A stretch of DNA of 64,000 nt, taken from IMG/VR virus record IMGVR_UViG_3300042520_001624, positions 7,485 through 71,484 of that record; one strand, 5' to 3'. The translations under genes and the position numbers were made by a program. Positions 40,975-63,870 of the stretch are shown here, piece by piece (positions within the stretch are counted from its first letter, which is position 1; every line of letters starts with the position of its first letter). The notes beneath the pieces are model-generated. The model saw nothing but the letters and a program-made list of their open reading frames with translations. It ran no database searches and had not been told where the DNA came from. The DNA comes from a virus.

Positions 40975-41320
40975 AGCTTCTCCGAACAGACCAAGCGAAA
41001 TCCTGTCATTTCGTGCACTACGTCTTCGTGAAGGGCGCCACAAAAGCCGGAGCTAGGACGCGGAATCCGGGAGTACATTCCATCCCACCACGAAAAAGCT
41101 TTAGTGACTAGGAAGTCAGGCACAAGCGGAATCCTCTTCGTTTGTCTCGGCTTAGCTTTCCGGGGAGTGTTGCAGGAGTGAGCATGGACTTCAGCTGCAC
41201 AGCCGGTTCCAAAACAGCTTTGCCCATCTTGTGATACAGCTTCCAGTCGTAACACTTCCCTATGGTTCGCACGTGGAAAAGCCCCAGCATGCCTGGAGCT
41301 AGCTGAAGCGCGGCGCTCAC
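40971..41320 (-). CDS. GxRL microprotein locus 1 (2 ORFs)
   Basis: 41320-41108 ends GFRLCLTS; 41123-40971 MPDFLVTKAFSWWDG...GFRLVCSEKL. Confidence 0.65.
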
Positions 41321-47614: not shown

Positions 47615-47930
47615 GTGGTTACGCTCAGCCGCAGTCCAAGCCAGTCAAACTTGTAGTAGTCGCTTCCGGTTTGTTTGGTGTGGCGGTCTCTGTAAGAACG
47701 TACTTCTTCCCAAGAGTAAACGTAGCCTAGCGCTAGTTTTTGTCTGTTGTTTGAGTAGCTACGCACAGTCTTACACCGTTTCGTTCGTAGATTTTTCCAG
47801 CTGTCATTAGGTCGGGAAGACGGCAGTCCATTTGCCTTGCCCACATGAAATGAAAACCGTAACTTACTAGAGCGTGTTTTGCTCTCGGAGGTCGCGGCGT
47901 ACTGTTCCGCAGAAACGCTGGAAGTGGCAT
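47611..47930 (-). CDS. GxRL microprotein locus 2 (2 ORFs)
   Basis: 47930-47733 contains GVRLCVAT; 47766-47611 ...VYSWEE...LGLRLSVTT. Confidence 0.65.
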
Positions 47931-47932
47931 AG

Positions 47933-48006
47933 TCCCCACGCCCGGACTCGAACCGGGACATATCTACTTTTGACGTAGACGCCGCTGCCAATTGGGCTAC
48001 GTGGGG
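47933..48006 (-). tRNA. tRNA with CAA anticodon (Leu), short variable loop, CCA not encoded
   Basis: Acceptor CCCCACG/CGTGGGG with A73; D arm TAGCCCAATTGGCAGCGGC; anticodon arm TCTAC-GTCAAAA-GTAGA; T arm CCCGG-TTCGAGT-CCGGG. Confidence 0.85.
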
Positions 48007-48010
48007 AAGC

Positions 48011-48030
48011 GGGGCGGCGAAAGCCGCCCC
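48011..48030. other. Perfect GC-rich hairpin between the SSB gene and the tRNA
   Basis: GGGGCGGC-GAAA-GCCGCCCC with no U-tract. Confidence 0.6.
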
Positions 48031-48036
48031 TGTATC

Positions 48037-48948
48037 TCAGAACGGAACGTCGTCGCTGTCCAGTTCCTCCTGCAGGGACTTGGCACGTCCCGCGGGCTTC
48101 TTGGGCGTCTTGGGAGCATTGGCGGCTGCCTCTGCTGCCTGCACAATACGCTCGAACGGCTCAAGGGCAGCCATCACTTCGTCCCGGGTCTTGGTCCGGG
48201 TGAAGATCTGGAGGTTGTGGCGAGCCTCCAGCAGCTTGGCCTGCTCCGCAGGGTCGGAGTGGATCGGACCCACGTCGGGGACTGCCATCTGGAGCTTACG
48301 CCCCCCAACATCCACCAACTGGAGGTTGCTGGCAAGCTCTACCTTGTAGTTCGTGTCCAGACCTTCGCCGGTCTTGGTCAGGGAGATCTCACAGCCCTCG
48401 TCCGCGTCGAAAAACGGGACAGAGCCATTGGTCTGGGCTTCCTGCATCAACTTCAGGAAGTTCCCGATCTCGGTCTTGTGAGTGCCGCGCCAAACGCCAC
48501 GGCTGAACTCAAGGATGCGTACGCCCTGTAGGTCCTCGGGAACGGGCACGGCGCTCTCCCCATCGGTCCAGGACGTAAAGACAACGTTCATGCGGATGAT
48601 TGTCTTGGCACGCCACTGCTTGCCGTCGCGCTCACGCCCTGCGGCGATCATGCGCTCTGCAAGCTTCTGGCCGGGGTCTGTGTACCCCATGTCCAGATAG
48701 GAGGCGACTGCCTTGGTTGCTGCGTCGTACAGGAAGTGTTCCTCCGTACGGACCCACGGAAGACCGCGCATGTCGTCGGTCGGGGGGAGTACGCGCAAAC
48801 GAACGGTGCCTTGGGGTAGCTTGGACTGCCGGACGATGATGTCCCGGAGCTTGGGACCGTCCTTGAAGGACTTCTTTCCGGAAGCTGCGGCAAGCTCCGC
48901 GTCGAGTGCGGTGGTGTCGATCTTGCCCTTGTTTACGATCTTTGCCAT
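48037..48948 (-). CDS. Single-stranded DNA-binding protein (T4 gp32-like)
   Basis: RLRVLPP...PW...H, FFDADEGCEISLTKTG...TNY and acidic DDVPF C-terminus. Confidence 0.8.
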   Translation of the reverse strand: MAKIVNKGKIDTTALDAELAAASGKKSFKDGPKLRDIIVRQSKLPQGTVRLRVLPPTDDMRGLPWVRTEEHFLYDAATKAVASYLDMGYTDPGQKLAERMIAAGRERDGKQWRAKTIIRMNVVFTSWTDGESAVPVPEDLQGVRILEFSRGVWRGTHKTEIGNFLKLMQEAQTNGSVPFFDADEGCEISLTKTGEGLDTNYKVELASNLQLVDVGGRKLQMAVPDVGPIHSDPAEQAKLLEARHNLQIFTRTKTRDEVMAALEPFERIVQAAEAAANAPKTPKKPAGRAKSLQEELDSDDVPF

Positions 48949-48988
48949 GATGATTCGTGTCTCCAAAAGTGGGCTTTCCGCCCTATGA

Positions 48989-49013
48989 TCTGACAAGAAC
49001 AACTCTTGTCAGA
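48989..49013. promoter_or_regulatory. Perfect 10-bp inverted repeat upstream of the SSB gene
   Basis: TCTGACAAGA-ACAAC-TCTTGTCAGA. Confidence 0.45.
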
Positions 49014-49149
49014 AGCTCATGCACAACCGCAGTCCTACCCAGAAGCAGGAGTCGTGCGGGCTTTGCGTTAGGTCGTTGTCGCGTCCGTACAGATCTACTT
49101 CAAAGTACGACCAGCGTTTACCGAACAGCCTGTACTCAACCTCGGACAT
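49009..49149 (-). CDS. GxRL microprotein locus 3 (1 ORF, not in track)
   Basis: MSEVEYRLFGKRWSYFEVDLYGRDNDLTQSPHDSCFWVGLRLCMSF. Confidence 0.65.
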   Translation of the reverse strand: MSEVEYRLFGKRWSYFEVDLYGRDNDLTQSPHDSCFWVGLRLCMSF

Positions 49150-49537
49150 GGTCGACGCCTGCGCGGACCTGCATCCGATGGTTGGACCCCAGCTGAATGA
49201 GTGCGTCTTTCTTGGCTCGGAGGGACTCTACCAGAGCGCGCATCTTGCGGGCGTTGCCTTCCGCTTCGATGTGCTTGGCGACGTAGCGACGGTACTCCGG
49301 GTCCAGCTCTACCTCTGCGGAGAGGAGGGCTTCGGTGGCCTTGTCCTTGCGGGACATCTCCTTGAGAACCTTGTAGGTCCGTGCGTGAGCTTGCTCCATG
49401 TCGGCCTTGGCCGTCAGAGCTAGCTGGTACGCATCTGCTTCGAGGCTGCCGTAATGCCAGAGTAGCGTGGGCAGTCCTACCAGATCGTTGTCGATGTCTT
49501 CGCTGATGGCTACGTGATTCTTGATCTTGTCTTCCAT
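49136..49537 (-). CDS. UvsY-like recombination mediator
   Basis: 133-aa helical protein with KATEA...DPEY...KKDALIQLG; near the SSB gene. Confidence 0.6.
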   Translation of the reverse strand: MEDKIKNHVAISEDIDNDLVGLPTLLWHYGSLEADAYQLALTAKADMEQAHARTYKVLKEMSRKDKATEALLSAEVELDPEYRRYVAKHIEAEGNARKMRALVESLRAKKDALIQLGSNHRMQVRAGVDHVRG

Positions 49538-49558
49538 GATGCGGTGCTCCTGATGCGC

Positions 49559-50475
49559 TTACGCGCGCTGTGCACAAGGAGAAGATAGCAACTCGCTACC
49601 GGCCTTGTCAAGCCCATTGTCATTGTGTGTCACTGCCAGCCGAAACGAACCTTGGCGTGTGTAGTCTCGGTCGGGCATTGGGTAGTCTCCCAGCAAGAAG
49701 TATTTTCCGCTGGCGATGTACCCGTTAGTGTAGGTTACGATCATACGTCACCGACAGTCGTAAGCCTATCGCCCCGTGAGATCCTGAAAGTTCTCTGAAA
49801 GCGAACAGATGCCCTGTGAGCACGCAAGAGCTGCTGTGCGTTCCTTCTACTGCCCAGCCAAAGCTTGCGTAGGTTACTATGGGCGGGTTTGGTCTGTACT
49901 TATGCATACGTCATTTTCAGACGAAACCCCATACGGTCTGTCCTAACTGTAATTCTGTAATGCCACTTCAGACAGTTAAAGTCTGTGGCCCTAGAAAGAG
50001 CTGAATTCTCCATGTCGTAGAAGCAGGGGGCCACAGTCTCTACTTGAGCTTCGTCATGCATACGTCATCTCCAGCCTAAACCCCATCTGATTGCGTTCAG
50101 TATGGTCTTTAAACTTCCAAGACCAGTCGCCGTCTTGTGCTTCTGACAAAACAGCTGTGGCCTGTTCGCGCCAGCTGGGAGACACAGTCTGTACCCAAGC
50201 AGCCTTCACTTGATCTTCGTCATGCATACGTCATTTCCAGTCGCAAAGATCCGTACTTTGGCTGGAGGTCGCGTTTCGCAATAAAACTATCCAGCAGCAA
50301 GCTTGTGTTTAGCGAGTGAAAGCTGTAACTCCAGATTACCATGTGTTTATGGCGCATAAAACACTCCCAGTCGGAACGAGCCATTGTTGCCATGCTCGTC
50401 CCCAGGAAACTGCCAGCTTTGAAAGTGCGACACTTCTGGATACGTCAGTGCGTTACCACGTGAAAGCACTCTCAT
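49559..50475 (-). CDS. GxRL microprotein locus 4 (6 ORFs)
   Basis: 50475-50347 (SFRLGVFYAP), 50357-50220 (SLRLEMTYA), 50227-50054 (GFRLEMTYA), 50061-49900 (GFRLKMTYA), 49907-49725 (GLRLSVTY), 49744-49559 (SFRLAVTH). Confidence 0.75.
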
Positions 50476-50480
50476 GTAAG

Positions 50481-53237
50481 CTACTTTACCTTTTGCATGT
50501 TTCCCCATGAGGGACCTCTCTTTGCATCCGCAGTCAGCGGAGTGTTACCGAACAGGGGCTGCGTCATTGCAGTCTTGAGAAACTGAACAGTCTTCTCGAC
50601 GTCTTCAGTTCGGACCATGACCATGATTGAGTCGTAGACCTGCAGGATGAGCTTGCCGCCGTCTGTATTGGCACGCAGCCAGAGCACAGTCTCCCAGAGG
50701 TGGGAAGCAATGACGTCTACGGAGCTGCCCTGCACAGGCCCGTTGTACGTACTACGCGCTGCGTTAAGGTCGTAACGCTTTCTGTTCTCTCTGTCTTTCT
50801 TGATACCTTTCTCAAGATCAGACAAGGTAGAAGGGTTACGGCCAAGACCCCAGAGAGGTCTACGTCGAGCAGACTCCCCCTTCCAGCTAGTCCGAGAGTA
50901 ACCTGCAGACCAAGCTGCAGAGTACTGCTCTTCCATCCAAGCCCGGAGTCGGGTGTAGGTTTGGAACATGGAGACAGCGAGGGCCTCACCGTCTTTGTTG
51001 GGGATGCCCAAGCGACCTGCAAGCATTCCTCCGAGCTCGGAAGGTATTTCGTAGATCGCTGCGAAGTTACTGGTCTTAGCGTTCTCTCTGTCGAGGTCTG
51101 TAACCTTCTCGGGATCCTTGCCTACGGCTACAGCGAACTTCTTGGCAGAAGCCATGTGGAAGTCTGTGCCTGCTGTAAGCATCTCGTGCATCGCAGGGTC
51201 GCCAGACAGGTGGGCAGCACCCCTGATCTCGATTTGCCCTGCGTCTACTTCTACGATCTCCCATCCGGGGGAACAGCTGAAGCAAGCACGTAGCTTGTCG
51301 GCCAGCTTCTTCTTACGCTCGGTTCTACCCTTGCTCACATTGAACAAGTTAGGATCTTGACTGGAGGCTCGGCCGCTCTCAGTCCCGTCTGCAAGGTAGC
51401 TGGGATGTACGTAGCCGTCGGACCGGACAAAGTGCCCGTAGCCAATGGCGTATGTCCCAAGCTGCTTGGTAAGCTCCCGATGCTGTAGAATGAGATCTAC
51501 AATTGGATGCTTCTTCTTGAAGTCTTCCAGAGCATCGTCAGAGTAAGAAGGCTTACCGCTGGATGTCTTCTTCTTGGGGACAATGCCAAGAGTAGACAGG
51601 TAAGCACCTACCTGCGGAGAAGATCCGGGATTGAGTCCGGGCTTGTACCCGTCGATCTTGGCCTGTACCTGCTTGAGCTCTGTCTCAAGGTACTGTGCGA
51701 ACAGCTGGAGGCCCCCCTTGTCGAGGGGCATGCCGTTCATGCGCATCTCGCAGTAAGCCCACATAGCGGGCTTGGAGACTTCCTCCCAGAGCAGGCACAT
51801 GCCGGGATCAAGGATCAGGCGGGAGTTGCACCAGTCTTCCAGATGCCATGTGGTAAAGGCGTCTCGGGCACAGTACCTCCAGAGAATGTCCTTGGGCATG
51901 AAGCGGTATGCAAACTTCTCCTCGTCGAAACCTGCATCGAGATACTCGAACCACTTGTTCCAAGTGGCTGTGTCCAGAGCAGCTGGCTGAATGTAGGTAA
52001 GAGTCGGAGGCTTACGTGTCTTGCCAGTGGGTGTCGTCTGGAAAGACATGCGGTACTTGCGGAGCTCATCGCAGATAGCTGCGAGTACTGTGTGAGCTTC
52101 CTGCTTGTGTCCGCCCATACCGATGAGGTTGGCGGAGGTACCGAGGTCTGCAGCTGCGTCTGCCTCCAGCAGCTTACGCTTGATGCGGGCGTCTGACTGC
52201 AGGTTCATACTGCCGTGCTCTGTTTTGTATAGAGCAGAGCGGGAGCCAGCACCTACACGGGCATCGTGGTACCCGTAGCCGTACCTTGCTTCTGGGTCAC
52301 ACTGGAAGGCAGTGTAGTCGTACTGCCCATTCCAAGATGTCTGCGGCAGAGATAGAATCTGCTGCATGTAGGGATGGGGCATGTCTGGGGGGATGTCGTA
52401 GTCATCCCCCTGGTATGCAAACCAGTACTCACGGGGCCAGACCCATACATGGTCTTCTGTGGAGGTAGCCACGCACTCAATGCGGAAGTCATCCTCGAAC
52501 ATCATCCCGGAGGTCTCAACGTCCGTGGCGATGTAAGGTGCCTTGCGGCACTCTAGGAGGGCATTGCGGGCAGCCTCCAGCGTGGTGACGACGGTGTACT
52601 GGGCGTCGAGCAATCGGGCACTGGGCGGGCTCTGGAGGGCTGTAGCGATGTCCTGCTCCAGAGCCATGCGGATGAGGCGGTTGGAGAGGGCGTAGCTGGG
52701 ATCTGGCAGGAAAAAGACAGGCTTGGGACCATCGTTGTAGAACCAGCCGTAGCCAGTACGTACAGACAGAGCCCTGTACGTCTCCCCAAGGACAGACAGA
52801 CCCGCAAGAGGACCTACGAGGAAGATGACCTTGGCATCGGAATCTACAATGTCCTGATGCATGTAAGGTCTACACGCATCTACACATGCAGGGATGTCCT
52901 GATCTGGAACCAGCTCCCCGTCGGGCTTACGCTTGAAGGTAGGCTTGCAGCCCAGCGATAGCGAGTAGACTACGTCCCTGCCCGGAGCCACAGACTCGAA
53001 GATGGCTCGGAGGGACTGGCCTGCGTTGTCCGCAAGGGGGCGCCCAAGTCTGCGCTCGAACTCTCCGGGGTACTCACCGACAACCAAGATGTCTCCGGGG
53101 GTTCCCTCGGGGGAGATACAGCGCTGTCCTGCTGGCGTTAGCGTGTGTAGCTCGCAACGGGTACAAGCACTGGAGCGTTCGAGGGGCTGAACTGTCTGAA
53201 CGACGGGGAGTCGCTTGCCGGGAAACAGGGGGAGCAC
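50481..53237 (-). CDS. polA: Family A DNA polymerase with N-terminal family-4 uracil-DNA glycosylase-like domain (SPO1-type)
   Basis: CTRCELH...GEYPG (UDG4), DVET exonuclease I, YCARD, SGRASSQDPNL, DAGQIEIR, RENAKTSNF and QVYDS. Confidence 0.9.
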   Translation of the reverse strand: MLPLFPGKRLPVVQTVQPLERSSACTRCELHTLTPAGQRCISPEGTPGDILVVGEYPGEFERRLGRPLADNAGQSLRAIFESVAPGRDVVYSLSLGCKPTFKRKPDGELVPDQDIPACVDACRPYMHQDIVDSDAKVIFLVGPLAGLSVLGETYRALSVRTGYGWFYNDGPKPVFFLPDPSYALSNRLIRMALEQDIATALQSPPSARLLDAQYTVVTTLEAARNALLECRKAPYIATDVETSGMMFEDDFRIECVATSTEDHVWVWPREYWFAYQGDDYDIPPDMPHPYMQQILSLPQTSWNGQYDYTAFQCDPEARYGYGYHDARVGAGSRSALYKTEHGSMNLQSDARIKRKLLEADAAADLGTSANLIGMGGHKQEAHTVLAAICDELRKYRMSFQTTPTGKTRKPPTLTYIQPAALDTATWNKWFEYLDAGFDEEKFAYRFMPKDILWRYCARDAFTTWHLEDWCNSRLILDPGMCLLWEEVSKPAMWAYCEMRMNGMPLDKGGLQLFAQYLETELKQVQAKIDGYKPGLNPGSSPQVGAYLSTLGIVPKKKTSSGKPSYSDDALEDFKKKHPIVDLILQHRELTKQLGTYAIGYGHFVRSDGYVHPSYLADGTESGRASSQDPNLFNVSKGRTERKKKLADKLRACFSCSPGWEIVEVDAGQIEIRGAAHLSGDPAMHEMLTAGTDFHMASAKKFAVAVGKDPEKVTDLDRENAKTSNFAAIYEIPSELGGMLAGRLGIPNKDGEALAVSMFQTYTRLRAWMEEQYSAAWSAGYSRTSWKGESARRRPLWGLGRNPSTLSDLEKGIKKDRENRKRYDLNAARSTYNGPVQGSSVDVIASHLWETVLWLRANTDGGKLILQVYDSIMVMVRTEDVEKTVQFLKTAMTQPLFGNTPLTADAKRGPSWGNMQKVK

Positions 53238-53246
53238 TTGAACCTC

Positions 53247-53881
53247 TTAGCGGGTTTGAGTGGTGAGTCTGAGTCCGAAGATGGTGGTTCGGGCTTGAGG
53301 ACGACTGATTGTGCCGAAACGTATAGCGTGTACAAACAGTATTGTTTCGTCGTCCCAAGACGCATTGGCAGCGTACATTACACTACGCATAGTCTTATCC
53401 CGAAGTACTTTGTTGTTGCCGACTGCGGAAAAGGTTCGCCGCTAAGAAAACAGGACTCGTCTTCATACGCAGTAAAGACTGCCAGTCGGGCTCTTAGTGC
53501 AGACATAGTCGCAGTCCCATGTAGCGAAGACGTCGCGTTTTCGGCTCTATGCCAAAGGACATTTCGCCGTTGAGCAGCAACCAGCGCGTATCGCAGTCTC
53601 CTACAAACGAGTGTCGGAAATACAGACTCACTTGGCACCTACGCACAGCCGGAAAGACATGCGGTAGCGGTATACACTCTTTTCAAAGTCTGTTTCTCCG
53701 TTTGCAAAGTGTGTTGTTCCGTAGGAAAACCCGAAGATGTGTACCATGTAGCGATCCTCAGCGAGAATCTCGGGTTCTGGTCTGTTAGCTGGGCTGTCCA
53801 TGGATAGGGCCTGTGTTTGAGAAGGGAGAAGTAGTCGTTCCAAGATCCGCCCAGAATCTTCTGAACTCGGAAAGTCTGCAT
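53247..53881 (-). CDS. GxRL microprotein locus 5 (5 ORFs)
   Basis: 53881-53639 (ILGGSWND...SLRIAT), 53747-53628 (SFRLCVGAK), 53631-53494 (GLRLCLH), 53506-53378 (GIRLCVV), 53390-53247 (ASWDD...GLRLTT). Confidence 0.75.
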
Positions 53882-53888
53882 GTGTATA

Positions 53889-53912
53889 GGGTGGGGCTGC
53901 AAAGCCCCACCC
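53889..53912. promoter_or_regulatory. 9-bp hairpin at the head of microprotein locus 5
   Basis: GGGTGGGGC-TGCAAA-GCCCCACCC, next to an AT-richer promoter-like stretch at 53915-53945. Confidence 0.45.
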
Positions 53913-53963
53913 GCAACACACTATGTATTTATGCAGAGTCGCAAGGAAGTTTCCGGGAGATAG

Positions 53964-54944
53964 CTACTTGTCGAGGAGCTTGGTCTTGGCTGCGCCAGCA
54001 TACAGCTTCATCGTGGACTGTCGGGTGATCTTGTAGATCTCTTCGGGAGTGACGTTGAGCGCCGGGTGCTTCCCGATCATGGAGACGAGCAGGTCTTCGA
54101 CCATCTGGGCGCTGACACCCTGCTCTGTCTTGAGATGCGTACAGGCGTGCTTGACTGCCAGACCGAGCATGGGCTTGGGTTCCCCCGCCAGGGCTTCCAG
54201 CACGCTGTTGGCTGCCTCGGAGGGAGCGTTAGCGACCGGAGAGGCTACAGGTGCGTTCACGGGCACTGCAGGGGCTGCTACGGGCTCCTGCGGAGCCTCT
54301 GCCTTCTTCCCGGACATGGCAGCCCGGAAAAGCTCCTTGGCTTCCTCGGGTTCTACGTTCAGGACTTCTGCCAGTCGGAAGGCCAGAGTATTGGACCCCC
54401 TAAGCTTGTCGGGCTCTGCCAGCTTCTTGATGGCTCCCGCATGGTCCTTCCAGACCTTCAGAGCATCCTGCATGGTCTTGATCTTCTTACAGTCTTCTTC
54501 AAAGAGGAAGAGGACGTCGTTGACCAGCTTGGGGCTGTCGACTTCCGGAGCGACGTGGACCTTGGGGGGTGCAACCGCGGGAGGAGCCACTACGACCGGA
54601 GGGGGCTCGGGGGCTGCAACTTCCTGAACGACCGGAGCGTACGTGACGATGTTCTCCGGCTTGAACAGGGGTACCTGTCGCTCGTCGGTCTGCTGCAGGA
54701 GTTCCTTCTTGAAGGCTTCCGCAATGTTCTGCGGGTTCACGCTGGGGTTGATGGTGACGGTCAGGTCTTGGGGTGCTGCTCGGTAGTTGAACTTCCGGAT
54801 GTAGTCGAAGAGTTCTGTGTACTCTTCGTAGCTGTCGACGACCACTTCGATGCTGACCGTCTTCTTCGGGTCGTGGCCGTCGTGGTGGGTTCGGTACTCG
54901 CTGAAATCAACGTTGAGATCTCGGATGGTCATGGTCTCGCTCAC
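53964..54944 (-). CDS. Hypothetical protein with Pro/Ala-rich linkers
   Basis: 326-aa ORF with typical codon usage. Confidence 0.65.
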   Translation of the reverse strand: MSETMTIRDLNVDFSEYRTHHDGHDPKKTVSIEVVVDSYEEYTELFDYIRKFNYRAAPQDLTVTINPSVNPQNIAEAFKKELLQQTDERQVPLFKPENIVTYAPVVQEVAAPEPPPVVVAPPAVAPPKVHVAPEVDSPKLVNDVLFLFEEDCKKIKTMQDALKVWKDHAGAIKKLAEPDKLRGSNTLAFRLAEVLNVEPEEAKELFRAAMSGKKAEAPQEPVAAPAVPVNAPVASPVANAPSEAANSVLEALAGEPKPMLGLAVKHACTHLKTEQGVSAQMVEDLLVSMIGKHPALNVTPEEIYKITRQSTMKLYAGAAKTKLLDK

Positions 54945-55258
54945 TTGGTCTGGGGTGGAAGGTAGATGGAGAGGACAACGCCGGAGGCGTCTACCTGGGT
55001 CACTTTGGCGTGCATGTTGTAGCCATGCTGCTTGAGCCGGAAGACTACTTCCTTGAGGATGCTACGAGCCACGTATCCGGCTTGCTCCAGTCCGTGATAG
55101 ACAGCAACTGCAGTGTTGTCGTGCGGGTTGCGAGGCTCGATCTCTAGCGACAGTGTCTTGTTGAGGATCGAGGCGGGGTTGGGGATGTCGTGATGCTTGT
55201 AGCCCGCGAGGGTACAGTCGAACAGCTTGAAATACTCGGGATCGGTTGTGATTGTCAT
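54941..55258 (-). CDS. HIRAN domain protein
   Basis: LAGYKH...LEIEPRNPHDNTAVAV...AGYV motif. Confidence 0.75.
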   Translation of the reverse strand: MTITTDPEYFKLFDCTLAGYKHHDIPNPASILNKTLSLEIEPRNPHDNTAVAVYHGLEQAGYVARSILKEVVFRLKQHGYNMHAKVTQVDASGVVLSIYLPPQTK

Positions 55259-56127
55259 TGTTCTTCTTTCAGAGTGAGGGAGAGTCTTAGGCCAAAGGCT
55301 TTGGAATAGTAAGCTGTGTGGACATAGCTGCTCCAGCCACCGACCAGCGCAGCTACGGGCACTTGCAGGTCCCAAGCATGTCCTGCGGTGTGTTTTACGT
55401 TACCGAAGTACACAGTCTTATGCTCTTGTAGGAGACGCCGTGAGTTGGATATGAACTTCTGAAAGACTGGCTGGGAGGTCGAAAGAAGCCGCGCGTGCTT
55501 TCGTCCCACGCGAACCACAAAGACATTGTTATTGAATGCACAGTCTTAGTCCTACGTATTCGGCGTCCGTCTCAACGAATCGGATACTTACGGCTCGGAG
55601 TGGATTAAAGTCGTCCCACGAAGTCCAAATCATCCGTTTGACATACAACATAGCCGAACTCCCATGCAGTGATACTTTTTAACGACCAGCAGAATGACGG
55701 GCGCGTGCTTTGGTTGCCAGTCGTCGTTCCAAGACGTGTTTGCGATAGCCGTCGCACTCATTTTAGGCGTTACGAAACGCATAGTCTCAGTCCGAAGTAC
55801 AGGGCTTGGGTGCCTCTAAAGTAAGACCAGTGTACACGGCGATAGGAGGTTACTTGGTCGTCCCAAGAGATCCAAGACTTTACTAGATGATCTTCGTGCA
55901 CAGCCGTACTCCCAGATAGACTCTGTCTGAACTGTCGCTGTAATACCACGTCATGCTAAGGTGCCGATTGTCGTGATCGTCCCAAGAGATCAAAGGTTTG
56001 ACTCTTAGATTGCAGTACACAGTCTTACTCCTCTCCACGGGGCTTTTGTTTGCGCGTAGTTGCATGCTGCGTCTCTGGACGGTAGCCACCCTTCGTCCCA
56101 GCTGCCGAAGAAGTAGTAGCCGTACAT
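55255..56127 (-). CDS. GxRL microprotein locus 6 (7 ORFs)
   Basis: 56127-56005, 56020-55883, 55901-55770, 55782-55630, 55651-55529, 55541-55395 and 55413-55255; all have [S/A]W[D/N] and [G/S][V/L/I]RL[C/S]. Confidence 0.8.
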
Positions 56128-56129
56128 GG

Positions 56130-56990
56130 CTAGGCGAGGCACTTTTGAATCTCTGTTTGTAGCCATGAGGATTCTACGTCGTCTGGATCGAGGGTCGGGG
56201 GGAGTCTCACAAAGCCAGCACGGACTCCGTACAGCTTTAGCTTCATGGACAGGGCTTCGCCTTTTCTCCAGGCGTCTCCGTCCAGAACAACTGCAACAGG
56301 TCTGCGTGCTTCTCGGAGGATCTGAACTTGCGCCTCCGACCAAGTCCCGAGAGTAGCTACTGCATTGGGCCAGACGTACGCTACGTCCAGAGTGCCTTCG
56401 ACAACGAGGAGGGGTTCCTCGGTCTGTATGTACACTTGCTTCTGGTTGTAGAGAATCTCACCGCGGAACATACCGCGTTTGTACATGTAGGTCAGGTTGC
56501 TCTTGCCGAGGGTCCTACCTACATAACCGAGCCATGTTGTATTGTCTGCGTCGAGAACTGGAATGATGATTCTGTTTCTGAAGTCTTGCTCGTCTTCAGA
56601 CAGAGGACGAGAAGTAGAAACACCCATTTGAGTTTGTGCGATTGCGACGGGTTGGATACCGCGCGATCTGGCATACGAGTAGGCGGTGCTAGTGACCGCT
56701 GTAGGGCGTTCTCCGATGGGTACCCACCCTGCGGGCGGATCGAACACGGGGAGGGCTTTCCCGCGGCTCCTAGAGGCCGCTACGGCTGCCTCGTCGGCTT
56801 CCCAGCCATCGAGGTGCCCGAGCTTGTGGCAGCGGAAGCAAAACCACTTACCCGTTGCCCTGTCAAGGGTCAGGTTCTTTTTCTTGGTAGCGTGACCATA
56901 CATGACGCAGAACGGGCAGACAGCTCGCGTGGTCTGAACCCCACGAGTCCCATCCTGCAATGCGGAAACTACCAGACTGTTTTTAGACAT
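56130..56990 (-). CDS. DNA primase (zinc finger plus TOPRIM)
   Basis: CPFC...CFRC, NRIIIP, VGR, VVEGTLD and LDGD; start reassigned to MSKNSL. Confidence 0.85.
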   Translation of the reverse strand: MSKNSLVVSALQDGTRGVQTTRAVCPFCVMYGHATKKKNLTLDRATGKWFCFRCHKLGHLDGWEADEAAVAASRSRGKALPVFDPPAGWVPIGERPTAVTSTAYSYARSRGIQPVAIAQTQMGVSTSRPLSEDEQDFRNRIIIPVLDADNTTWLGYVGRTLGKSNLTYMYKRGMFRGEILYNQKQVYIQTEEPLLVVEGTLDVAYVWPNAVATLGTWSEAQVQILREARRPVAVVLDGDAWRKGEALSMKLKLYGVRAGFVRLPPTLDPDDVESSWLQTEIQKCLA

Positions 56991-57251
56991 GATGTGTGTT
57001 TGTGGACAGTCGAAATCCCCAACCGTTGCGGTGGACGCTCTCGCGGGCATACGACTTTCCAAACGCTGTCATGCTGGACAAAAGCACGCTGGTTTTATTG
57101 AAGTAGCCGCTGCTGGTTAGAACGAAGCGCATAGCCGTACTCCAAAGTTGTAAGCTGTGTACCAGCAATCAAAGCGGTTGAAACTCCGTTTGGAAGCTAT
57201 ACTTAGCCAGTTTCCCTGGAAAACTACTTTACTTCCCGAGATAGGAGACAT
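56983..57251 (-). CDS. GxRL microprotein locus 7 (2 ORFs)
   Basis: 57251-57117 (FQGNW...GVRLCASF); 57132-56983 (GFRLSTN). Confidence 0.7.
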
Positions 57252-58557
57252 CGGACATTCTCGACATGTGGCGAAAGTGGGGGATAGGTCCGAGCACAGT
57301 TCCGGTCCTGCCGTAGTACCGATCCGCGTCGATGTACCAGAGGTATCCGTCGGAAGCTTTCATGTCCGGCTGGGGAGTAGCCGTCAGGAAGAAGTCAGAC
57401 AGTCGGTACTTGTGGACGCTGTCTGCAACGTCCTTGCGTGTCAGCATGGGCATGACTTGTCCCGGGCGTGCTTCCGGACGCTTGGACTGCGTAGCGGTCA
57501 AGACCCAGTTGGGAGCTTCCTCTCGGGCTGCCATGTTGTACAGAGCTGTCCAGACGGTCTTGCCGCGGCCATACTCGGACTCACGATCCTCGCGCTTGGA
57601 GCTAGCGATCAGATCGCCGTAGTCCATAACGCGGTATCGGAATCGGGTATTGTGCTCCTTCTCCTGTCGATCAAACCAAGCAACGACTTCTTTTTCGTTG
57701 ATGGCTTGCTGCTCGAACTTCTCGACAACAACCTTGCCGACTCGTCCGGACTGTCGCAGCTGCTTGTATACCCGCAGAGCTTCCGCACGTAGCTTGGCGT
57801 TGAGCAGGTCGTTAATCGGTATGCCCAGGGTCGCTGCGATGACACGGCGATGGATCTCTTCGCGGGGGAGCTCCATGGAGAGATACGCAACGTCCTCGCC
57901 ATGCATGGAGGCCACAGCAGCTAGCTGACACAGGTATACGGACTTACCAGCTTTGGAATCCATGAGAGTCGTGGTGAGCGTGCCGCAGGGCAGCCCGCCA
58001 CCGAACTCGGAGTCCAGCTCGCAGATACCTGTCGGCATCTGCTCTGCGCGGGTAGAACACTCAAGGAGCAACTCGGAGTCTTCGCCGATCTCCGAGGCTT
58101 TGGTCTCTATGTCTGCTGCGGCAGCACCCAACTGGTCGCAAGCTGCCATGAGGTCGACAAGGTCTCCGAACTTGGAGCCGTTGCCGTAACGCTCTACAGC
58201 TTTGGAGACAAGACCCTGCATCATGTGACGGCGAACTGGCTCGACCAGCTCTGTCACAGTGGCGTCGATGTCAACCTCACCATCTTGAGAAGCCAACGCT
58301 TCTCCGATGTTGAGAACTGTCTGCTCGTCGATCTTGCCTTCTGACATCCAGAGAGAAGCACGCTGGCAAACGAGGTCCTCTGTGGGATTGTTGTGGTCGA
58401 CGGCAACGGCCTTGGCAAGCTTCACCAAAGTCTGGTTGGTTGGGTCGGCTAGCTCGTCGGGAGCTACTTTGTTTCCGATGCGCAGCCAGAACAACTTGTG
58501 GCTTGCGCAGAGGACAGAAACCTGCCGTTCAAACTTGGGATTGAGGTTGTAGCTCAC
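57229..58557 (-). CDS. Replicative DnaB-like helicase
   Basis: PTGICELD...GGLPCG, AGKS, YLSME, DYGDLI, TATQ and VADS motifs. Confidence 0.8.
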   Translation of the reverse strand: MSYNLNPKFERQVSVLCASHKLFWLRIGNKVAPDELADPTNQTLVKLAKAVAVDHNNPTEDLVCQRASLWMSEGKIDEQTVLNIGEALASQDGEVDIDATVTELVEPVRRHMMQGLVSKAVERYGNGSKFGDLVDLMAACDQLGAAAADIETKASEIGEDSELLLECSTRAEQMPTGICELDSEFGGGLPCGTLTTTLMDSKAGKSVYLCQLAAVASMHGEDVAYLSMELPREEIHRRVIAATLGIPINDLLNAKLRAEALRVYKQLRQSGRVGKVVVEKFEQQAINEKEVVAWFDRQEKEHNTRFRYRVMDYGDLIASSKREDRESEYGRGKTVWTALYNMAAREEAPNWVLTATQSKRPEARPGQVMPMLTRKDVADSVHKYRLSDFFLTATPQPDMKASDGYLWYIDADRYYGRTGTVLGPIPHFRHMSRMSDVSYLGK

Positions 58558-59316
58558 GCTTGGGTCCTTGTTGTGAGTCGGAAGGTTGCGCCAGGGGGTC
58601 GAGGAACATCAAACTGTAATTGGCACCTTCGCACGTCGTAGAGTCCTCGGTAGAATTGGAGGTTTCCGCCGATCCGTATAATGCCGATGGCTACGTTGTA
58701 GGTCCTCACGGCAGTCCTACGCAGAGTCGGAAGGTTCTACCAGTGTATTTGTTGTAGGGAGCAAGATGGCCGAGGCTGTAGTGGCACCACGATACACGGT
58801 ACATCGAGTAGCCATTCCGAACATGCAAAGTCACCATTGTATCCTCGTGCACAGTCGGAGTGTCTGGTCGTCGCAGCGCATTGTAGGTCCCCAAGAACAG
58901 GCAGTTTTGTACACCCGTTGAGCGGTGTCTGACCAGTAACAACCGAAACCTATCACTATCCGGGCTTTACGCATAACCGGACTCCGTCAACGCTGTGTCT
59001 ATCTTTTGAGTTGCTTGAGTAGCGGCGGAATCTGCACCACTTCGCGTCTACGAAAGACGACCACTTTACTTGTACGAAAGACATAGTCGCATTCCGTCGA
59101 GGTTGTATCTGACGTATCTATGAGCCCAATCGAAACGCAGATCGCACCTGTGTGCATCTAGGAACTGCGCCCACTTTACTTGTACGAAAGACATAGTCTT
59201 ATCGTGTCTGTGAAGTACCGAAGGTTTGCAAAGTATACGAGCCAGTTTCGTCTATAGAACTGGCCTTTCCAGCAGCTCCAAGAAGTTTGAATCACGTAAG
59301 TGTCGGAGCTCACCAT
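58554..59316 (-). CDS. GxRL microprotein locus 8 (6 ORFs)
   Basis: 59316-59176 (TIRLCLSYK), 59194-59066 (GMRLCLSYK), 59084-58956 (GVRLCVKPG), 58974-58831 (TLRLCTRIQW), 58837-58706 (TFRLCVGLP), 58709-58554 (TFRLTT). Confidence 0.75.
59061..59198. repeat. 28-bp exact direct repeat spanning two microprotein junctions
   Basis: CCACTTTACTTGTACGAAAGACATAGTC at 59061-59088 and 59171-59198. Confidence 0.9.
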
Positions 59317-59894
59317 ACGTACTCTCCGGACTGCACAGCTTTCAGCAGAGACTTGGCTGCTTGTTGATTGGCTTGCTGCGCTGCTTCGAGCTTGAGCAGG
59401 TAGTCTCGCTCGCTTGTCTTTTGCAGGCGGAGTTTTTGCCATTCTGCAATGGCGATTCTGCTTTCGGGAGTGAGCACGGTCCGGGGGACTCCGAGTTGGT
59501 GGAGCCAGGACATAGGCCCTTCCAGCTCTCTCGCCAGCGCATTCGGAGAAAACACAAACCCGAACGGGGGATGCGTCAGCTTTTCCGGGACATCGGAGCC
59601 GAGGAAGGCGTTGTACCGGTGGAGGACCCAAGCAGCCGGGGGGATGTCCAGAGCGTACAGCTGGCCGATGCAGAGCTTGGCGGCAGGACTGATCTGCTTC
59701 GGGGGGCTAGCCCAGTGCCCGCACAGCCGCCGCAGGGCCGTGGTCCAGAGCTTGGTGTAGTACGGGTCTGGCTGGGCTTCTGCGGGGGCTACAGGGGCCA
59801 CAGGGAGCACGGCGGCGTGGAGTAGCTCAGGGGTCGGAAAGGGCGGAAGGTTGTCGATCCGCAGGGTCCTGCTGAAGACTTGCAGAGGTTCCAT
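59310..59894 (-). CDS. Hypothetical protein (replication module)
   Basis: 194-aa ORF between the two helicases. Confidence 0.6.
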   Translation of the reverse strand: MEPLQVFSRTLRIDNLPPFPTPELLHAAVLPVAPVAPAEAQPDPYYTKLWTTALRRLCGHWASPPKQISPAAKLCIGQLYALDIPPAAWVLHRYNAFLGSDVPEKLTHPPFGFVFSPNALARELEGPMSWLHQLGVPRTVLTPESRIAIAEWQKLRLQKTSERDYLLKLEAAQQANQQAAKSLLKAVQSGEYVW

Positions 59895-60521
59895 GTTGGC
59901 TCTCTATGGTGGAGGTGTATGTAACTGCAAGCCGGAAGCCTGAGATGTCTACTTCGGTGTTGACGTCTTTAATGCAGGGGTAGAGGAGAGCGTCACCTTC
60001 CCATTCCCAGTGTGAGTACACGCCGAGGCTCACGTCCAAGAAACGCATAGTCTTACCGAGATGTTTTTGTGGTGGAATTTTGCGTGAAACAAGGTAGAGA
60101 ACTTCTTGCACCACTGATGTGAAAAGTGAGAGTAGACTATTGAATACATAGTCTTACTCCCACAACAAAAGCACGGTACTCAGCTCGTGTTACTTGCTGC
60201 GCGTAATCTAGGTTGGAGCCTGCGTAGGACCAGTGGAGATAAACTACTCTGGATACGAGCAGCATAGTCTGAATCCTCCGATGTCGAGTTTATTGTCGTT
60301 GGAGTGAGCACAGCGTGTGCGCGTAGCATCGCCAGCCCAAAACCAATGCGCGTACACACCTAGTCCGTATTCTATGTACAGCATAGACGAAAAGTCCCTA
60401 CGTAGGTGCTCTCATAGCTATATCGCTCGGGGAGAGTCAGACGAGCGTTCATGCCCCAGTGATATGGGGCATAGTTGGCTATCTTGCGCTTTTCTGGCTC
60501 AACGTTCTGTTTTGACGACAT
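59827..60521 (-). CDS. GxRL microprotein locus 9 (5 ORFs)
   Basis: 60521-60372 (TFRLCCT), 60384-60244 (GFRLCCSY), 60265-60137 (GVRLCIQ), 60149-60030 (SVRLCVSWT), 60048-59827 (GFRLAVTY). Confidence 0.75.
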
Positions 60522-61857
60522 AGCCGAATCTTTCGTAGGCTTGTTTACGTTCTTGGGAATGCTTTTCGAGCCACTGGCAGCCTTTGTGTTGCTGCTTGCC
60601 TTGGCATCCGCATCCCCTGTCTAAAACATCGAAGACGTAGAAGTTGTCTTTTGTAGTACCATCTTTCATGTGTCGGCGGGACCCTCTGCCAACTTTCTGA
60701 ATGATGTCGACAACAGCTTTACCTCCCGATGCTTGTATGACAGTGGCGATCTCGGGAATGTCCACACCCTGTCGGAAGATCGGGGTTGAGACCAGAGTAC
60801 CTACAGTTCCGTTGACGAGTTGCCGAACGGCTCTGTTGGCATCGTTCATTGGTACTTTGTCGTTGACGTGAACTGCGGTAGCGCCAAGCTGTTTCATTAG
60901 AATGGCTTGGTGCTCGTGTGTCCTTACGAAGACAATACGAGGTGCTGGCGTTGTTGCTATCAGCCGGAGAATCAGGTTGTTCCGGACTGTATTCTTGACG
61001 ATAGCGTGCTTCTCCCAAGCAACATACCCCATTGCTGCGGACACGGGAGCATGGTGCATGGGCACCATTGTGAGATTGGCTTTTGCTGTGATGCCATCAG
61101 ACGCTGCCTGTGAAGGCATGTACTTGTCGATGACATCTCCGAAAGCTCCAATGGTATAGATGCTTTTCTTGTCGGAGCGGTGTAGGGGTGTCCCGGAAAA
61201 CCCTATTCGTATCTCTGCGTTTATGCAGGAGAGAACAACTCCGAGGTAGGTATTACCTCCGCTGCCGTGAACCTCATCTCCGAGCACAGCAACGAAAGAC
61301 TCTATCTTGTCTTTCGGGAGTTTGGCAGCACTATTTACTGTCGCAACAATGACAGGTCGCTTGAGCTCTTTGTAGGAGTCTCCGAATCTCCCTGCTGTGA
61401 TCTCTGCAACTTTCTTAATTCTGTCGTACATTTCGTGCATGAGCTTGATGCTCGTGACAAGGACAAGAGTAGGTGCATTGATCTCTGCGACCAGGGCTGC
61501 AATGGTTGTCGCTTTGCCAGTCCCGGTTGCGTGTTGGATGATGCCTTTCCGGCTCTCCCAGATGGCGTCTAGCGCCCGGACTTGGTGCGGCCAGAGACCG
61601 TCCCGGGGGACAGCGAGGGGCGCCACCGATGGCTTACGGGAGGCAACAGCCACCTCCATACCTCGCTCCCGTGCCGCAGCGACCACGCGCGCTGCAAGCC
61701 CAGCCGGGAACATTCGAGTGCTGGAAAGAAGACAGTGGGAGGTGTCTTTGCCTTGTGGGTTGGACGAGTGGAATGTGAGGTACTCACGGAGAAAAGACTC
61801 CTCTTGCGTTGTTGCTTGGATTATCTTGGCGTATGAGTTTCCAACAGCGAGCTGCAT
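60499..61857 (-). CDS. Superfamily 2 helicase (UvsW-like)
   Basis: LWPHQ, ATGTGK, DEVH, SGTP, GVDIP and QKVGRGSR motifs. Confidence 0.9.
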   Translation of the reverse strand: MQLAVGNSYAKIIQATTQEESFLREYLTFHSSNPQGKDTSHCLLSSTRMFPAGLAARVVAAARERGMEVAVASRKPSVAPLAVPRDGLWPHQVRALDAIWESRKGIIQHATGTGKATTIAALVAEINAPTLVLVTSIKLMHEMYDRIKKVAEITAGRFGDSYKELKRPVIVATVNSAAKLPKDKIESFVAVLGDEVHGSGGNTYLGVVLSCINAEIRIGFSGTPLHRSDKKSIYTIGAFGDVIDKYMPSQAASDGITAKANLTMVPMHHAPVSAAMGYVAWEKHAIVKNTVRNNLILRLIATTPAPRIVFVRTHEHQAILMKQLGATAVHVNDKVPMNDANRAVRQLVNGTVGTLVSTPIFRQGVDIPEIATVIQASGGKAVVDIIQKVGRGSRRHMKDGTTKDNFYVFDVLDRGCGCQGKQQHKGCQWLEKHSQERKQAYERFGYVVKTER

Positions 61858-62387
61858 GTCGGAATACTAACACACAGCCGCGTAGACACTACAACTCTGC
61901 GGGTTTCAGAAGCGTAGACAGACATCTCCCACTTGTTCTTGGGATAATCCTTTTCGCACCAAGCAGGGAGAAAAGTGTGCTGGGCTAGCGGTCTGGGACG
62001 GTCATGCATAGTCGAAAGCTCCTGTCTCTGAAGTCGCTCTCAACGTCTCCTCTCCATTTTGCTGGGGAGGTAGACCGAAAACGGCCGAACGAGGGGTAGA
62101 ACGCGGTAACAACTACATGAAACATAGTCTTATCCCCAAGTAAGAGGTTCCGCTAGTTTTCAGGCGGTCTCCAATACCTTGTGTGCCGAGGGACAGCCAA
62201 CTTGATCCGAACAAGAAGTAGTAGGCTACAGAGATGCGCACAGACGTAGTCCTAACCAGAGTTGGTTGAAACCCGCATGTCTGCGTCGAGAGTCTTTTGT
62301 CTTTTCCAAGCTACTAAAAAGCAGACGGTCTTTAGCTTCGTAGTAGGTAACGCCGCAGATGCTGGGATACCTAAGCCGCAGGTACAT
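61821..62387 (-). CDS. GxRL microprotein locus 10 (4 ORFs)
   Basis: 62387-62226 (GLRLCASL), 62241-62113 (FGSSW...GIRLCFM), 62125-61985 (SFRLCMT), 62009-61821 (STRLCVS). Confidence 0.75.
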
Positions 62388-62625
62388 AGGTGTTTGAAGG
62401 TTCATCGAATTTCCACTGTCGCATTAGTTCGTCGTACACGATCTTACCGAGGTGCTTGGCGATGTCCGGGAGGTACACGTACACAACCCCGTTTGCACGG
62501 TGCAACGTATACGTCTTGTCGGATATGCGATTGTAAAGTGTCCGCTTTGAAAAGCGGAACATCTTTACTGCCAAGTCGACGTGGACTAGCTCACGTCCCA
62601 TACCTTTGATACGTGTCTGCTTCAC
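62371..62625 (-). CDS. Small HTH (excisionase-like) DNA-binding protein
   Basis: VDLAVKMFRFSKRTLYNRI helix-turn-helix pattern. Confidence 0.55.
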   Translation of the reverse strand: MKQTRIKGMGRELVHVDLAVKMFRFSKRTLYNRISDKTYTLHRANGVVYVYLPDIAKHLGKIVYDELMRQWKFDEPSNTYVPAA

Positions 62626-63083
62626 GGCTCCTCCTTGTCTGGCTCCGATGCAATGAGCAGGAGCTTCTCTGTTTCGTACTTGGCGAAGAGATTCTTTACG
62701 TACTCTTCTGCCACGCGACTTGCAGCTCTGGCAATCGCAAGATCGACTTGCTCGTTTACTTTGGTTGCAATACGCCGCTGTAGATCTTTATTGTCTTGCA
62801 GCTGTAGTACTTGCAACGTCGTTTCGTACACGATGCGGTCTTCGATAGATTTGTCCAGTGCAGTAAGAGCTGCATTCTTGTTAGGGTTGGGGGTACTGTA
62901 GTTCCCAAAGAGCTTGTTGAGGGCTCGCTCTTGGGCGGACTCCATTACACGCCGGATGGCGTAGTCAGTTTCGTGCTCTCTGGCGGAGAGGCTGCGCTTG
63001 TCGGACAGCCGAGCAGCGACCTGCTTTTCGATGCGAGCAAGCGTGGCCTTTTCCAAGGCTGCTTTGGCATCGGTAAGAGACAT
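62622..63083 (-). CDS. Hypothetical helical protein
   Basis: 153 aa from MSLTDAK. Confidence 0.55.
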   Translation of the reverse strand: MSLTDAKAALEKATLARIEKQVAARLSDKRSLSAREHETDYAIRRVMESAQERALNKLFGNYSTPNPNKNAALTALDKSIEDRIVYETTLQVLQLQDNKDLQRRIATKVNEQVDLAIARAASRVAEEYVKNLFAKYETEKLLLIASEPDKEEP

Positions 63084-63093
63084 AGGAGTCTTT

Positions 63094-63597
63094 CTACTCG
63101 CCACGGGTTTTGTTCTTTCGTGCGGAGGGGGTTTGTCGACGGGGAGGTGCTCGGAAAGCGCGCTGGTATGCTGAGTGTGCGTCTCTCCAGGCATGGTCTT
63201 TGATGTAGCGGTTCATGCTTTCTGTGTAAGACCGAATGTACTCGTTCTTTGCGACTTCAAGAATCTGTGCTTGGTACTCCGGAGTAGACATGTGCTCTTC
63301 GGCCATCTCTTTTGCCTTCTCCAGAGCAGCCTGTGGAACCTCGTGATTCTCAAGAGCACCGCGGTATCTAGAGACAATGTAGTCGTCTCCGATCCGACGA
63401 ACGAACTCTTCTTTGACGAGCTCACGAAGAGCGTCCGGAGTCGCGAGGTACCCGGTCATTACCTCGATCACAGCGTCTCGGGCTTGTTGTTCCAGAAGCT
63501 GAATGACGTCTCGGGCTTCTGTGTTCTTGAAGCCTTCTTTCAGACTTTGCAGAACTTGTGCATAGCTCGGAGGTTTGGAAGGCTTATTCTTTGCCAT
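63094..63597 (-). CDS. Hypothetical helical protein
   Basis: 167-aa ORF. Confidence 0.55.
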   Translation of the reverse strand: MAKNKPSKPPSYAQVLQSLKEGFKNTEARDVIQLLEQQARDAVIEVMTGYLATPDALRELVKEEFVRRIGDDYIVSRYRGALENHEVPQAALEKAKEMAEEHMSTPEYQAQILEVAKNEYIRSYTESMNRYIKDHAWRDAHSAYQRAFRAPPRRQTPSARKNKTRGE

Positions 63598-63870
63598 GAT
63601 CTTGTTTTGTCGAGAGTGTGGTTACGCACAGCCGAATACTGTTGGAGGAGTCGTGACTTGAAGGTTTCTCGGGCACTGTGGTTTTCTTGCTGTTTTGAAA
63701 GTTCAGGTCTTTGGCGAGGGTGTCTTCAAACACACCTCCGATCATTAGGCGCTCTTTGTAGCTGCGCATAGTCTTAGTCCCCTCAGCCGGAAATATGCCC
63801 ACGCCAACCCCAGCCGACTGCGTAGAAGTTTGAGATCAGGGGAGAGGTCGTCGGGAAAGGCGCTAGACAT
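63584..63870 (-). CDS. GxRL microprotein locus 11 (2 ORFs)
   Basis: 63870-63745 (GLRLCAATKSA); 63769-63584 (LMIGGVFED...SIRLCVTT). Confidence 0.7.

Follow-up and report, generated by a model that had tools for sequence, protein, structure and literature searches.

A family of small overlapping open reading frames in the replication module of a lake-water phage, probably translated and coupled through dual-coded tails

A run of seven short open reading frames (ORFs) separates a DNA primase gene from a gene for a HIRAN-like protein in the contig of an uncultured lake-water phage (IMG/VR record IMGVR_UViG_3300042520_001624), and raises the question of what these frames are for, and why their two ends are alike when their middles are not. 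The window analyzed here, to which all positions refer, is the whole 64,000-nucleotide stretch corresponding to bases 7485-71484 of this 71,484-base viral contig. The ORFs lie on the minus strand, running from 56127 to 55255 in the interval bounded by the primase stop codon at 56130-56132 and the HIRAN start codon at 55258. The initial annotation, made from the sequence alone, had listed seven consecutive ORFs of 40-52 amino acids (aa) between primase and HIRAN genes, each with a tryptophan motif and a recurrent tail and none with an internal stop codon. All of this was borne out: coordinates were confirmed on the minus strand, the motifs and tails given below match that description exactly, and none of the seven units contains a stop. 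The upstream flank is a DNA primase gene (56130..56990, minus strand; phrog_47, E 1.8e-23, and a weak match to Pfam DNAG_N), while the assignment of the downstream flank (54941..55258, minus strand, 105 aa) to HIRAN is weak (Pfam E 4.7e-5, with 23.6 bits against a cut-off of 24.7).

Unit 1 (56005..56127, 40 aa; GSWDE, GVRLC) starts at the ATG at 56127, 2 nt after the TAG stop codon of the primase, with an alternative ATG at 56166 that would extend it to 53 aa. Unit 2 (55883..56020, 45 aa; ISWDD, GVRLC) starts at a GTG located within the tail of unit 1. It is followed by unit 3 (55770..55901, 43 aa, GTG start; ISWDD, GLRLC), unit 4 (55630..55782, 50 aa, ATG start; TSWND, GVRLC), unit 5 (55529..55651, 40 aa, ATG start; TSWDD, GLRLC), unit 6 (55395..55541, 48 aa, GTG start; FAWDE, SIRLC) and the terminal unit 7 (55255..55413, 52 aa, GTG start; HAWDL, GLRLS), all of them on the minus strand. 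Units 4 and 5 are identical in sequence to proteins P0001 and P0003, respectively, and P0002 is an ortholog of unit 3. The seven units overlap serially, by 16, 19, 13, 22, 13 and 19 nt, and the three-frame translation of the region gives the frame order 1, 0, 2, 1, 0, 2, 1; the result is a regular repeat with a period of 110-131 nt and a conserved 15-nt motif. A conserved aromatic residue near position 10-20 and a G-h-R-L motif near the C-terminus are common to the peptides. Identity of units 1 and 3-7 to unit 2 is only 18-35% and is mostly owed to these anchors, the centres being very diverged.

Inspection of the overlaps indicates where much of the C-terminal similarity comes from. In the internal tails, the following unit has its start codon assembled, in the -1 frame, from the third base of the Leu codon and the first two bases (TG) of the Cys codon. 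This embedded start is situated 7-8 nt past a GGA(G), formed by the Gly codon plus the first base of the codon after it. At the junction between units 1 and 2 (56017..56031, minus strand), the G-V-R-L-C codons thus hold a Shine-Dalgarno (SD)-like AGGAG, whose first A is the base preceding the Gly codon, then 7 nt, and the GTG of unit 2. Equivalent junctions start at 55912, 55793, 55662, 55552 and 55424. The tail of unit 7, which is the last in the chain, has no Cys and its Gly codon is GGC; here the TGA stop codon overlaps the ATG of the HIRAN gene as ATGA.

The same arrangement recurs through a family of 38 members, identified by a regular expression and chaining of units, which form 11 arrays of 1-7 units located between nearly all the large replication genes. 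Altogether they occupy 5859 nt, or 8.2% of the 71.5-kb contig. A profile built from 37 members located 38 sites in the contig, every one of them on the minus strand at positions 40,980-63,825 of the window; the plus strand and the 7.5 kb beyond the window had none. These sites are the model's own source sequences, and the result speaks of its specificity and is not independent support. Twenty-two of the 38 members begin at an ATG or GTG inside the tail of the preceding member, and 22 of the 26 listed start-to-start spacings shorter than 200 nt equal 2 modulo 3, the four exceptions being all in one array (array VIII).

With this census the influence of the embedded start on the tail could be evaluated. 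Cys is present in 27 of 27 tails with an overlapping xTG and in none of the 11 others, where T, S, G, E, K or V takes its place and the Leu codon CTA is absent. Since Cys appears only where the overlapping start does, it probably arises as a side effect of encoding the start of the unit that follows. The embedded starts are ATG in 15 cases, GTG in 11 and CTG in one. Codon choice follows the same pattern: the Gly codon of internal tails is GGA in 15 of 18 cases, versus 22% of the 1071 Gly codons in long genes, and the Leu codon is CTA in 14 of 27 and CTG in 9 of 27, versus 11% and 31% in long genes, whereas CTC and CTT, which account for 44% of Leu codons in long genes, are found in only one of the 27. 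The third base of the Leu codon is consequently A or G in 26 of 27 internal tails. The start site of the following gene thus accounts for three features of the tail: its Cys, its preferred Gly codon and the last base of its Leu codon. As DNA, the junction motif occurs 15 times when up to three mismatches are allowed, compared to 6.4 ± 2.5 times in shuffled sequences, and none of 100 shuffles reached 15. All 15 occurrences are on the minus strand, 13 of them within 47,764-63,780, and the motif precedes family members only, large genes starting after terminal units that do not carry it.

Bases that seem to encode a conserved protein anchor therefore serve in large part to direct translation, and selection should be read with caution from alignments of small proteins. 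The purifying selection on both anchors proposed in the initial annotation is supported for the aromatic residue and for Arg-Leu, which are kept, but much of the remaining C-terminal conservation corresponds to SD and start signals and not to selection on the protein.

That the units are genes is supported by several observations. In mononucleotide shuffles the probability of each of the seven frames being open is 0.07-0.14, with a product of 6e-8, and the summed log10 for the 38 members is -40.8; a chance origin of the seven open units is excluded. Arg is invariant in 38 of 38 tails although it is encoded by six different codons (AGA, AGG, CGA, CGC, CGG and CGT), and so is Leu, through five codons. 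The G/S/T-h-R-L motif is retained in all 11 tails that do not overlap a start, despite several base changes in the Cys codon, and in array VIII Arg-Leu lies upstream of the SD sequence and not between it and the start. At the N-terminal anchor, W is present in 32 of 37 aligned members and Y in the other five, and no other residue replaces W. Invariance of Arg-Leu through many codons, also where no start overlaps, indicates that the units are probably translated peptides, and these data argue for selection on the aromatic residue and on Arg-Leu at the level of the amino acid.

The centres were analyzed leaving out the overlapping ends. For all but one of the 38 units, the frame proposed has the highest score, and the codon-usage score per codon is -0.04 in the units versus -0.23 in ORFs open in the wrong frame (n=372, p 3e-11). 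The G+C content by codon position is 0.50/0.47/0.56, compared to 0.61/0.48/0.62 in long genes. Tyr and Phe occur at about twice the rate that random codons of equal base composition would give, and Pro is halved. Whole peptides are mostly basic, with a median isoelectric point of 9.3 and values above 8 in 28 of 38. The centres look like weakly adapted, fast-evolving coding sequence, and not like clean domains. In agreement with this, neither Pfam nor PHROGs gave anything significant for 37 members (best E 0.033 and 0.072, respectively), no family being matched by more than one member, and no usable match was obtained in the ESM Atlas.

The arrays also adjoin the large replication genes in a characteristic way. 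The joint between the last unit and the following gene is ATGA or GTGA at the HIRAN, DnaB-like helicase and Mre11-like genes; overlaps of 8 nt at the primase and 14 nt at a gene for a 167-aa protein are found, and at PolA there is a gap of +10 nt with an SD sequence. Using start codons of our own choice for the large genes, 6 of the 16 on the minus strand have no SD-like match at all (primase, HIRAN, SNF2, a gene for a 326-aa protein and two others), and a match of at least 4 nt is present in only 5 of 16. For the plus-strand structural genes, 17 of 27 have an SD match of at least 4 nt, from which it follows that the host uses SD sites, and which argues for a bacterial host. Several replication genes therefore probably depend on ribosomes arriving from the preceding unit, as judged from their start regions. 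As a separate observation, the starts at 55258, 56990, 61857, 63597 and 54944 (minus strand), corresponding to the HIRAN, primase, SNF2 helicase, 167-aa and 326-aa genes, lack any SD-like match within the 16 nt before them, and all five lie on or near the stop codon of the preceding gene.

Taking these results together, the explanation we favor, with somewhat more confidence than an even chance would warrant, is that of a translated family of mini-genes working as self-coupling cassettes, which would form a chain for ribosomes from the primase to the HIRAN gene, would be gained and lost as whole units at the junction, and would encode accessory proteins. The tail of each internal unit would serve at once as protein end, SD sequence and start of the next gene, each unit starting 13-22 nt before the stop of the preceding one and one frame back. 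Ribosomes translating the primase could in this way be passed from unit to unit, either by termination and reinitiation or by loading, with the help of the SD sequence, onto mRNA that the preceding ribosome has opened, until the chain ends at the HIRAN gene, which would be reached without an SD sequence of its own through its ATG overlapping the stop of the last unit. All junctions share the same geometry, so whole units could come and go at them without breaking downstream expression. As to the peptides, we infer from their sequences that they may act as small early accessory proteins, with specificity residing in the diverged middle.

Several data weigh against this explanation. Nine of the 27 internal tails have Ser or Thr in place of Gly, and hence no GGA, and the SD sequence is weak at junctions 3->4 and 6->7, with only GGA/GAG-like matches. 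Common overlaps are those of 1, 4 and 8 nt according to a review on translational coupling (PMC12548453), and those found here, of 13-22 nt, exceed these -1, -4 and -8 types, so that reinitiation would need back-scanning or fresh loading of 30S subunits. The coding evidence also has its limits: the contrast among Arg codons is modest (0 AGY of 15 AGN versus 5 CGY of 23 CGN, p about 0.02-0.07 by our own estimate), codon usage in the units is clearly below that of 45-codon pieces of long genes (+0.18; p 7e-17), and the Kullback-Leibler divergence of composition is 0.10 to random codons and 0.12 to the long proteins of the phage. The survey of SD matches rests on our choice of large-gene starts, as mentioned. 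Lastly, the monomer structures that the initial annotation had proposed to predict did not yield a confident fold: AlphaFold2 with the paralog alignment gave a mean predicted local distance difference test (pLDDT) score of 61.5 and one hairpin for unit 2, and of 58.8 and no regular element for unit 3.

Information on the turnover of the units comes from relatives and from other samples. A profile search of 1.84 billion representatives returned 10 matches at E <= 1e-3, six of them the window's own proteins and three (P0002, P0005 and P0010) from other contigs; a protein of 2155 aa, also among the 10, showed no matched stretch and was taken as spurious. P0002, the only clear ortholog, aligns with the whole of unit 3 (43 residues) at 79% identity, and a central stretch of 13 residues is unchanged. 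At such a short divergence this would fit conservation or drift, and not a rapid turnover of the loop. P0005 and unit 2 share 48% identity. The N-terminal extension of P0002 is unlike the sequence upstream of unit 3 in this phage and corresponds to an out-of-frame reading of the 3' end of an ortholog of unit 1, which places the unit-3 ortholog directly after unit 1 in the relative. Judging from this one protein, one whole unit thus appears to differ between the two phages, with the break at the junction.

Within the phage, identity between paralogs averages 0.25 in the same array and 0.19 between arrays (p 6e-6 for the within-array excess), with a maximum of 0.45. The paralogs are old, and very diverged centres can therefore be the outcome of plain divergence. 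The statement in the initial annotation that central segments share essentially nothing stands as a description, given the 18-35% identity to unit 2 mentioned above, but the diversifying selection it was taken to reflect is not needed to account for it.

The family has been found only in this phage lineage. Three viral contigs with a 45-46% identical primase gave no family match by regular expression or profile, and P0002 as query had no match among viral contigs. Its sole match in metagenomes, locus L005, was taken as chance, being one 32-codon frame that overlaps other open frames, one of them of 580 codons on the opposite strand. Word-index searches with A1, with units 1 and 4 and with P0005 and P0010 returned only the queries' own proteins, and a blastn search of 53000-59500 against a phage collection had no match. 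DNA patterns spanning two junctions had no match in viral contigs, a variant pattern giving one single-match locus; in cultured and uncultured prokaryote genomes there were six single-match loci versus about two expected by chance, and a profile search showed no array at the single-match loci. The stretch itself is present in sequencing runs: 24 rows, drawn from 22 studies and bearing a lake-water label in nearly every case, with no RNA run among those listed. In four runs compared, each from a different study, short contigs were almost identical to the window. One contig of run X14, with a depth of 2.3, differs at 55663, 55667 and 55670. By our translation each of these changes replaces an amino acid of unit 4 (H->R, C->Y and M->I) directly before the G-V-R-L tail, and they are the only variants seen in the array in another sample.

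These results bear on other ways of explaining the locus. The units could be relay or spacer mini-cistrons acting only in cis, in which open frames and junctions bring ribosomes to replication genes devoid of SD sequences and the peptides have no function; in a variant of this idea, they may be an attenuator or delay line setting the ratio of neighboring genes. Such spacers would be expected where arrays are found, at almost every boundary of a large replication gene, with stop-start overlaps and several downstream genes without SD, and would agree with the weak codon adaptation and near-random overall composition of the centres, the absence of a confident fold and the near absence of homologs among the 1.84 billion representatives. 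We nevertheless regard this explanation as unlikely, because it leaves unexplained the conservation of the aromatic residue and Arg-Leu, including the 11 tails with no overlapping start, and the roughly twofold Tyr and Phe in the centres. Large genes also couple directly, as the HIRAN and 326-aa genes do by a GTGA, so spacers are not needed for coupling. A little less credible to us is the scenario of the initial annotation, which constitutes a special case of the cassette explanation: a repertoire of small binders that share a fixed two-anchor scaffold and whose loop evolves under diversifying selection, for instance against variable host defenses or targets. Conserved anchors and very diverged centres among 38 paralogs, the location among early and replication genes and the three non-synonymous variants in unit 4 (in that one contig of depth 2.3) are in line with it. 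However, P0002 keeps the centre of unit 3, the near-identical phage in four lake-water runs reveals no rapid turnover, paralogs of such age, at most 45% identical, require no positive selection, the anchors owe part of their conservation to a translation signal, and no fold is predicted.

Conservation at the peptide level with no predicted fold, and a tail motif that coincides with the site of reinitiation, would suit a nascent-peptide device, in which the aromatic residue and G-h-R-L act in the exit tunnel, slow or hold the ribosome near the stop codon and so aid reinitiation at the start located 13-22 nt upstream. The position of Arg, 4-11 residues before the stop, and of the aromatic residue, some 25-40 before it, are within the length of chain shielded by the ribosome. 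SecM and TnaC are arrest peptides that act within the ribosomal exit tunnel, and the known motifs of this type need a fixed spacing. The spacing is loose here, with 8-38 residues from the aromatic residue to Arg and 4-11 after Arg, and we see only a slim chance for such a device. A combination of both ideas, a relay in which the nascent peptide holds the ribosome at the end of each mini-cistron and the number of units sets the timing or ratio of the replication genes, is likewise a long shot. Finally, the regular period of 110-131 nt, the conserved 15-nt motif and the displacement of each unit one frame back from the preceding one could point to something other than genes, i.e. a non-coding DNA or RNA repeat (promoter, terminator, structured RNA or iteron-like) or a polyprotein made by serial -1 frameshifting. 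This is scarcely believable in view of the openness beyond chance and of the ATG or GTG that follows GGA(G) at a set position in 26 of the 27 internal tails. A structured RNA was rejected, with no conserved pair in 17 aligned units, and no Rfam family matched at gathering thresholds. Between 47 and 64 kb, promoter-like sites of the sigma-70 type were not in excess (8 versus 6.8 expected), nor were terminator-like sites (18 versus 15). Serial frameshifting was rejected as well: an in-frame X_XXY_YYZ slippery heptamer is present in the last 60 nt of only one of the 38 units.

The cassette explanation can be compared to systems already described. Translational coupling of overlapping genes with the SD sequence inside the upstream gene is established, and RNA unfolding and ribosome scanning after termination are among the mechanisms covered in the review cited above (PMC12548453). 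The arrays share with it ORFs that run in the same direction and overlap, the last part of the upstream one harboring an SD-like sequence and the start codon of the next, as well as NTGA overlaps where they meet large genes. They differ in that the signal is the conserved C-terminal motif of a family, at 27 junctions in one genome, and in the overlaps of 13-22 nt; coupling is here read from sequence alone. Start-Associated Sequences (SAS) of Cluster K mycobacteriophages (PMC3203893) are also short conserved motifs with an SD core a few bases before starts, in one orientation only and only in the non-structural half of the genome. SAS is, however, a 13-bp motif of another sequence, mostly intergenic and associated with many gene families, while the junction described here is itself coding, forms the tail of the peptides of one family and precedes members of that family only; the junction motif does not fit the 13-bp SAS consensus with up to two departures allowed. 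The PeSL cassettes of T4-type phages (PMC2839356, PMC4122927), which mediate modular shuffling, are small variable early genes bounded by a short repeated regulatory sequence, at which whole genes are apparently gained or lost between related phages; one similar indel is inferred here. The PeSL repeat is transcriptional, consisting of promoter and terminator hairpin, whereas neither an excess of promoters or terminators nor a conserved hairpin was found for our cassettes, whose repeat is a translational junction and which all belong to one family.

An array of precursors of ribosomally synthesized and post-translationally modified peptides was also considered, and no modifying enzyme, protease or transporter was found alongside: Pfam revealed no enzyme family of this type in 18 neighbors, eight of which had no match, and those with matches are replication and recombination proteins. 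Among the titles and abstract beginnings covered in the literature search, no paper suggested such arrays in phages, and the design is apparently undescribed in print.

If correct, the cassette explanation would illustrate compactly how about 40 very small genes can all be expressed in a phage and yet be inserted or removed freely, since each cassette would carry the start site of whatever comes next. Several replication genes, having no ribosome-binding site of their own, seem to depend on the chain. Should coupling operate, the number of cassettes between two genes would be a control on their relative expression, and should the relay involve the nascent chain, the arrays would constitute a modular and evolvable ribosome delay line made of arrest-like peptides. 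To our knowledge, a control of gene expression by such a delay line has not been described for phages. Interest in the system is heightened by the share of the genome that the family fills, 8%, in a phage that recurs in the lake-water metagenomes of many studies.

The arrays belong to a well-defined part of the genome. Structural genes occupy the plus strand up to about 40 kb, and the minus strand from about 41 to 64 kb holds a replication and recombination module with PolA, a DnaB-like helicase, the primase, the weak HIRAN, an SNF2-type helicase, SbcC-like and Mre11-like proteins, a ParB-like nuclease and an SSB-like protein. All arrays are on the minus strand. Array I (63584..63870), near the contig end, has two units. 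Array II (61985..62405) consists of three units and one further candidate starting at 62009, and array III (60030..60521) of four units after the SNF2-type helicase and a long-tailed candidate starting at 60048. Both candidate ORFs start inside a family tail and have an R-L-C or R-L-A motif, followed by an atypical long tail that runs more than 14 residues past the motif into the start of the next large gene; they were left out of the 38. At the 3' end of the SNF2 helicase gene, just before the first unit of array III, positions 60521-60535 (minus strand) contain the junction-like bases ..CGGCTATG in a third frame, which is neither that of the helicase nor that of any family unit, and these may be a relic of a former unit.

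Array IV (58554..59316) has six units upstream of the DnaB-like helicase, and the stop codon of its last unit overlaps the helicase start as GTGA. In two adjacent units of this array, 55 nt comprising the junction and the first 14 codons (59034-59088 and 59144-59198) are 82% identical, while the rest of both units is fully diverged, which suggests partial gene conversion or recombination at the junction. Array V (56983..57251), with two units, is located between helicase and primase, and its last stop overlaps the primase ATG by 8 nt. Array VII (53247..53801) has four units upstream of the polymerase with a uracil-DNA-glycosylase (UDG)-like domain. This PolA, a family A DNA polymerase (50481-53237, minus strand), carries at its N-terminus a domain of the uracil-DNA-glycosylase superfamily (Pfam UDG, E 6e-13). 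The five units of array VIII (49725..50508) have variant tails, and its junction is different: in three of the five, which end in R-L-E/K-M-T-Y-A, there is an 8-nt overlap of the stop with the ATG that follows, and the SD sequence lies within the Leu-Glu codons. Arg-Leu is kept in all five. The remaining arrays are IX (49009-49149), with one unit, and X (47611-47930) and XI (40971-41290), with two units each. The only tRNA, a tRNA-Leu with anticodon CAA (47932-48006, minus strand), lies between the SSB-like gene and array X, and is spanned by a long open frame upstream of one of the units of that array.

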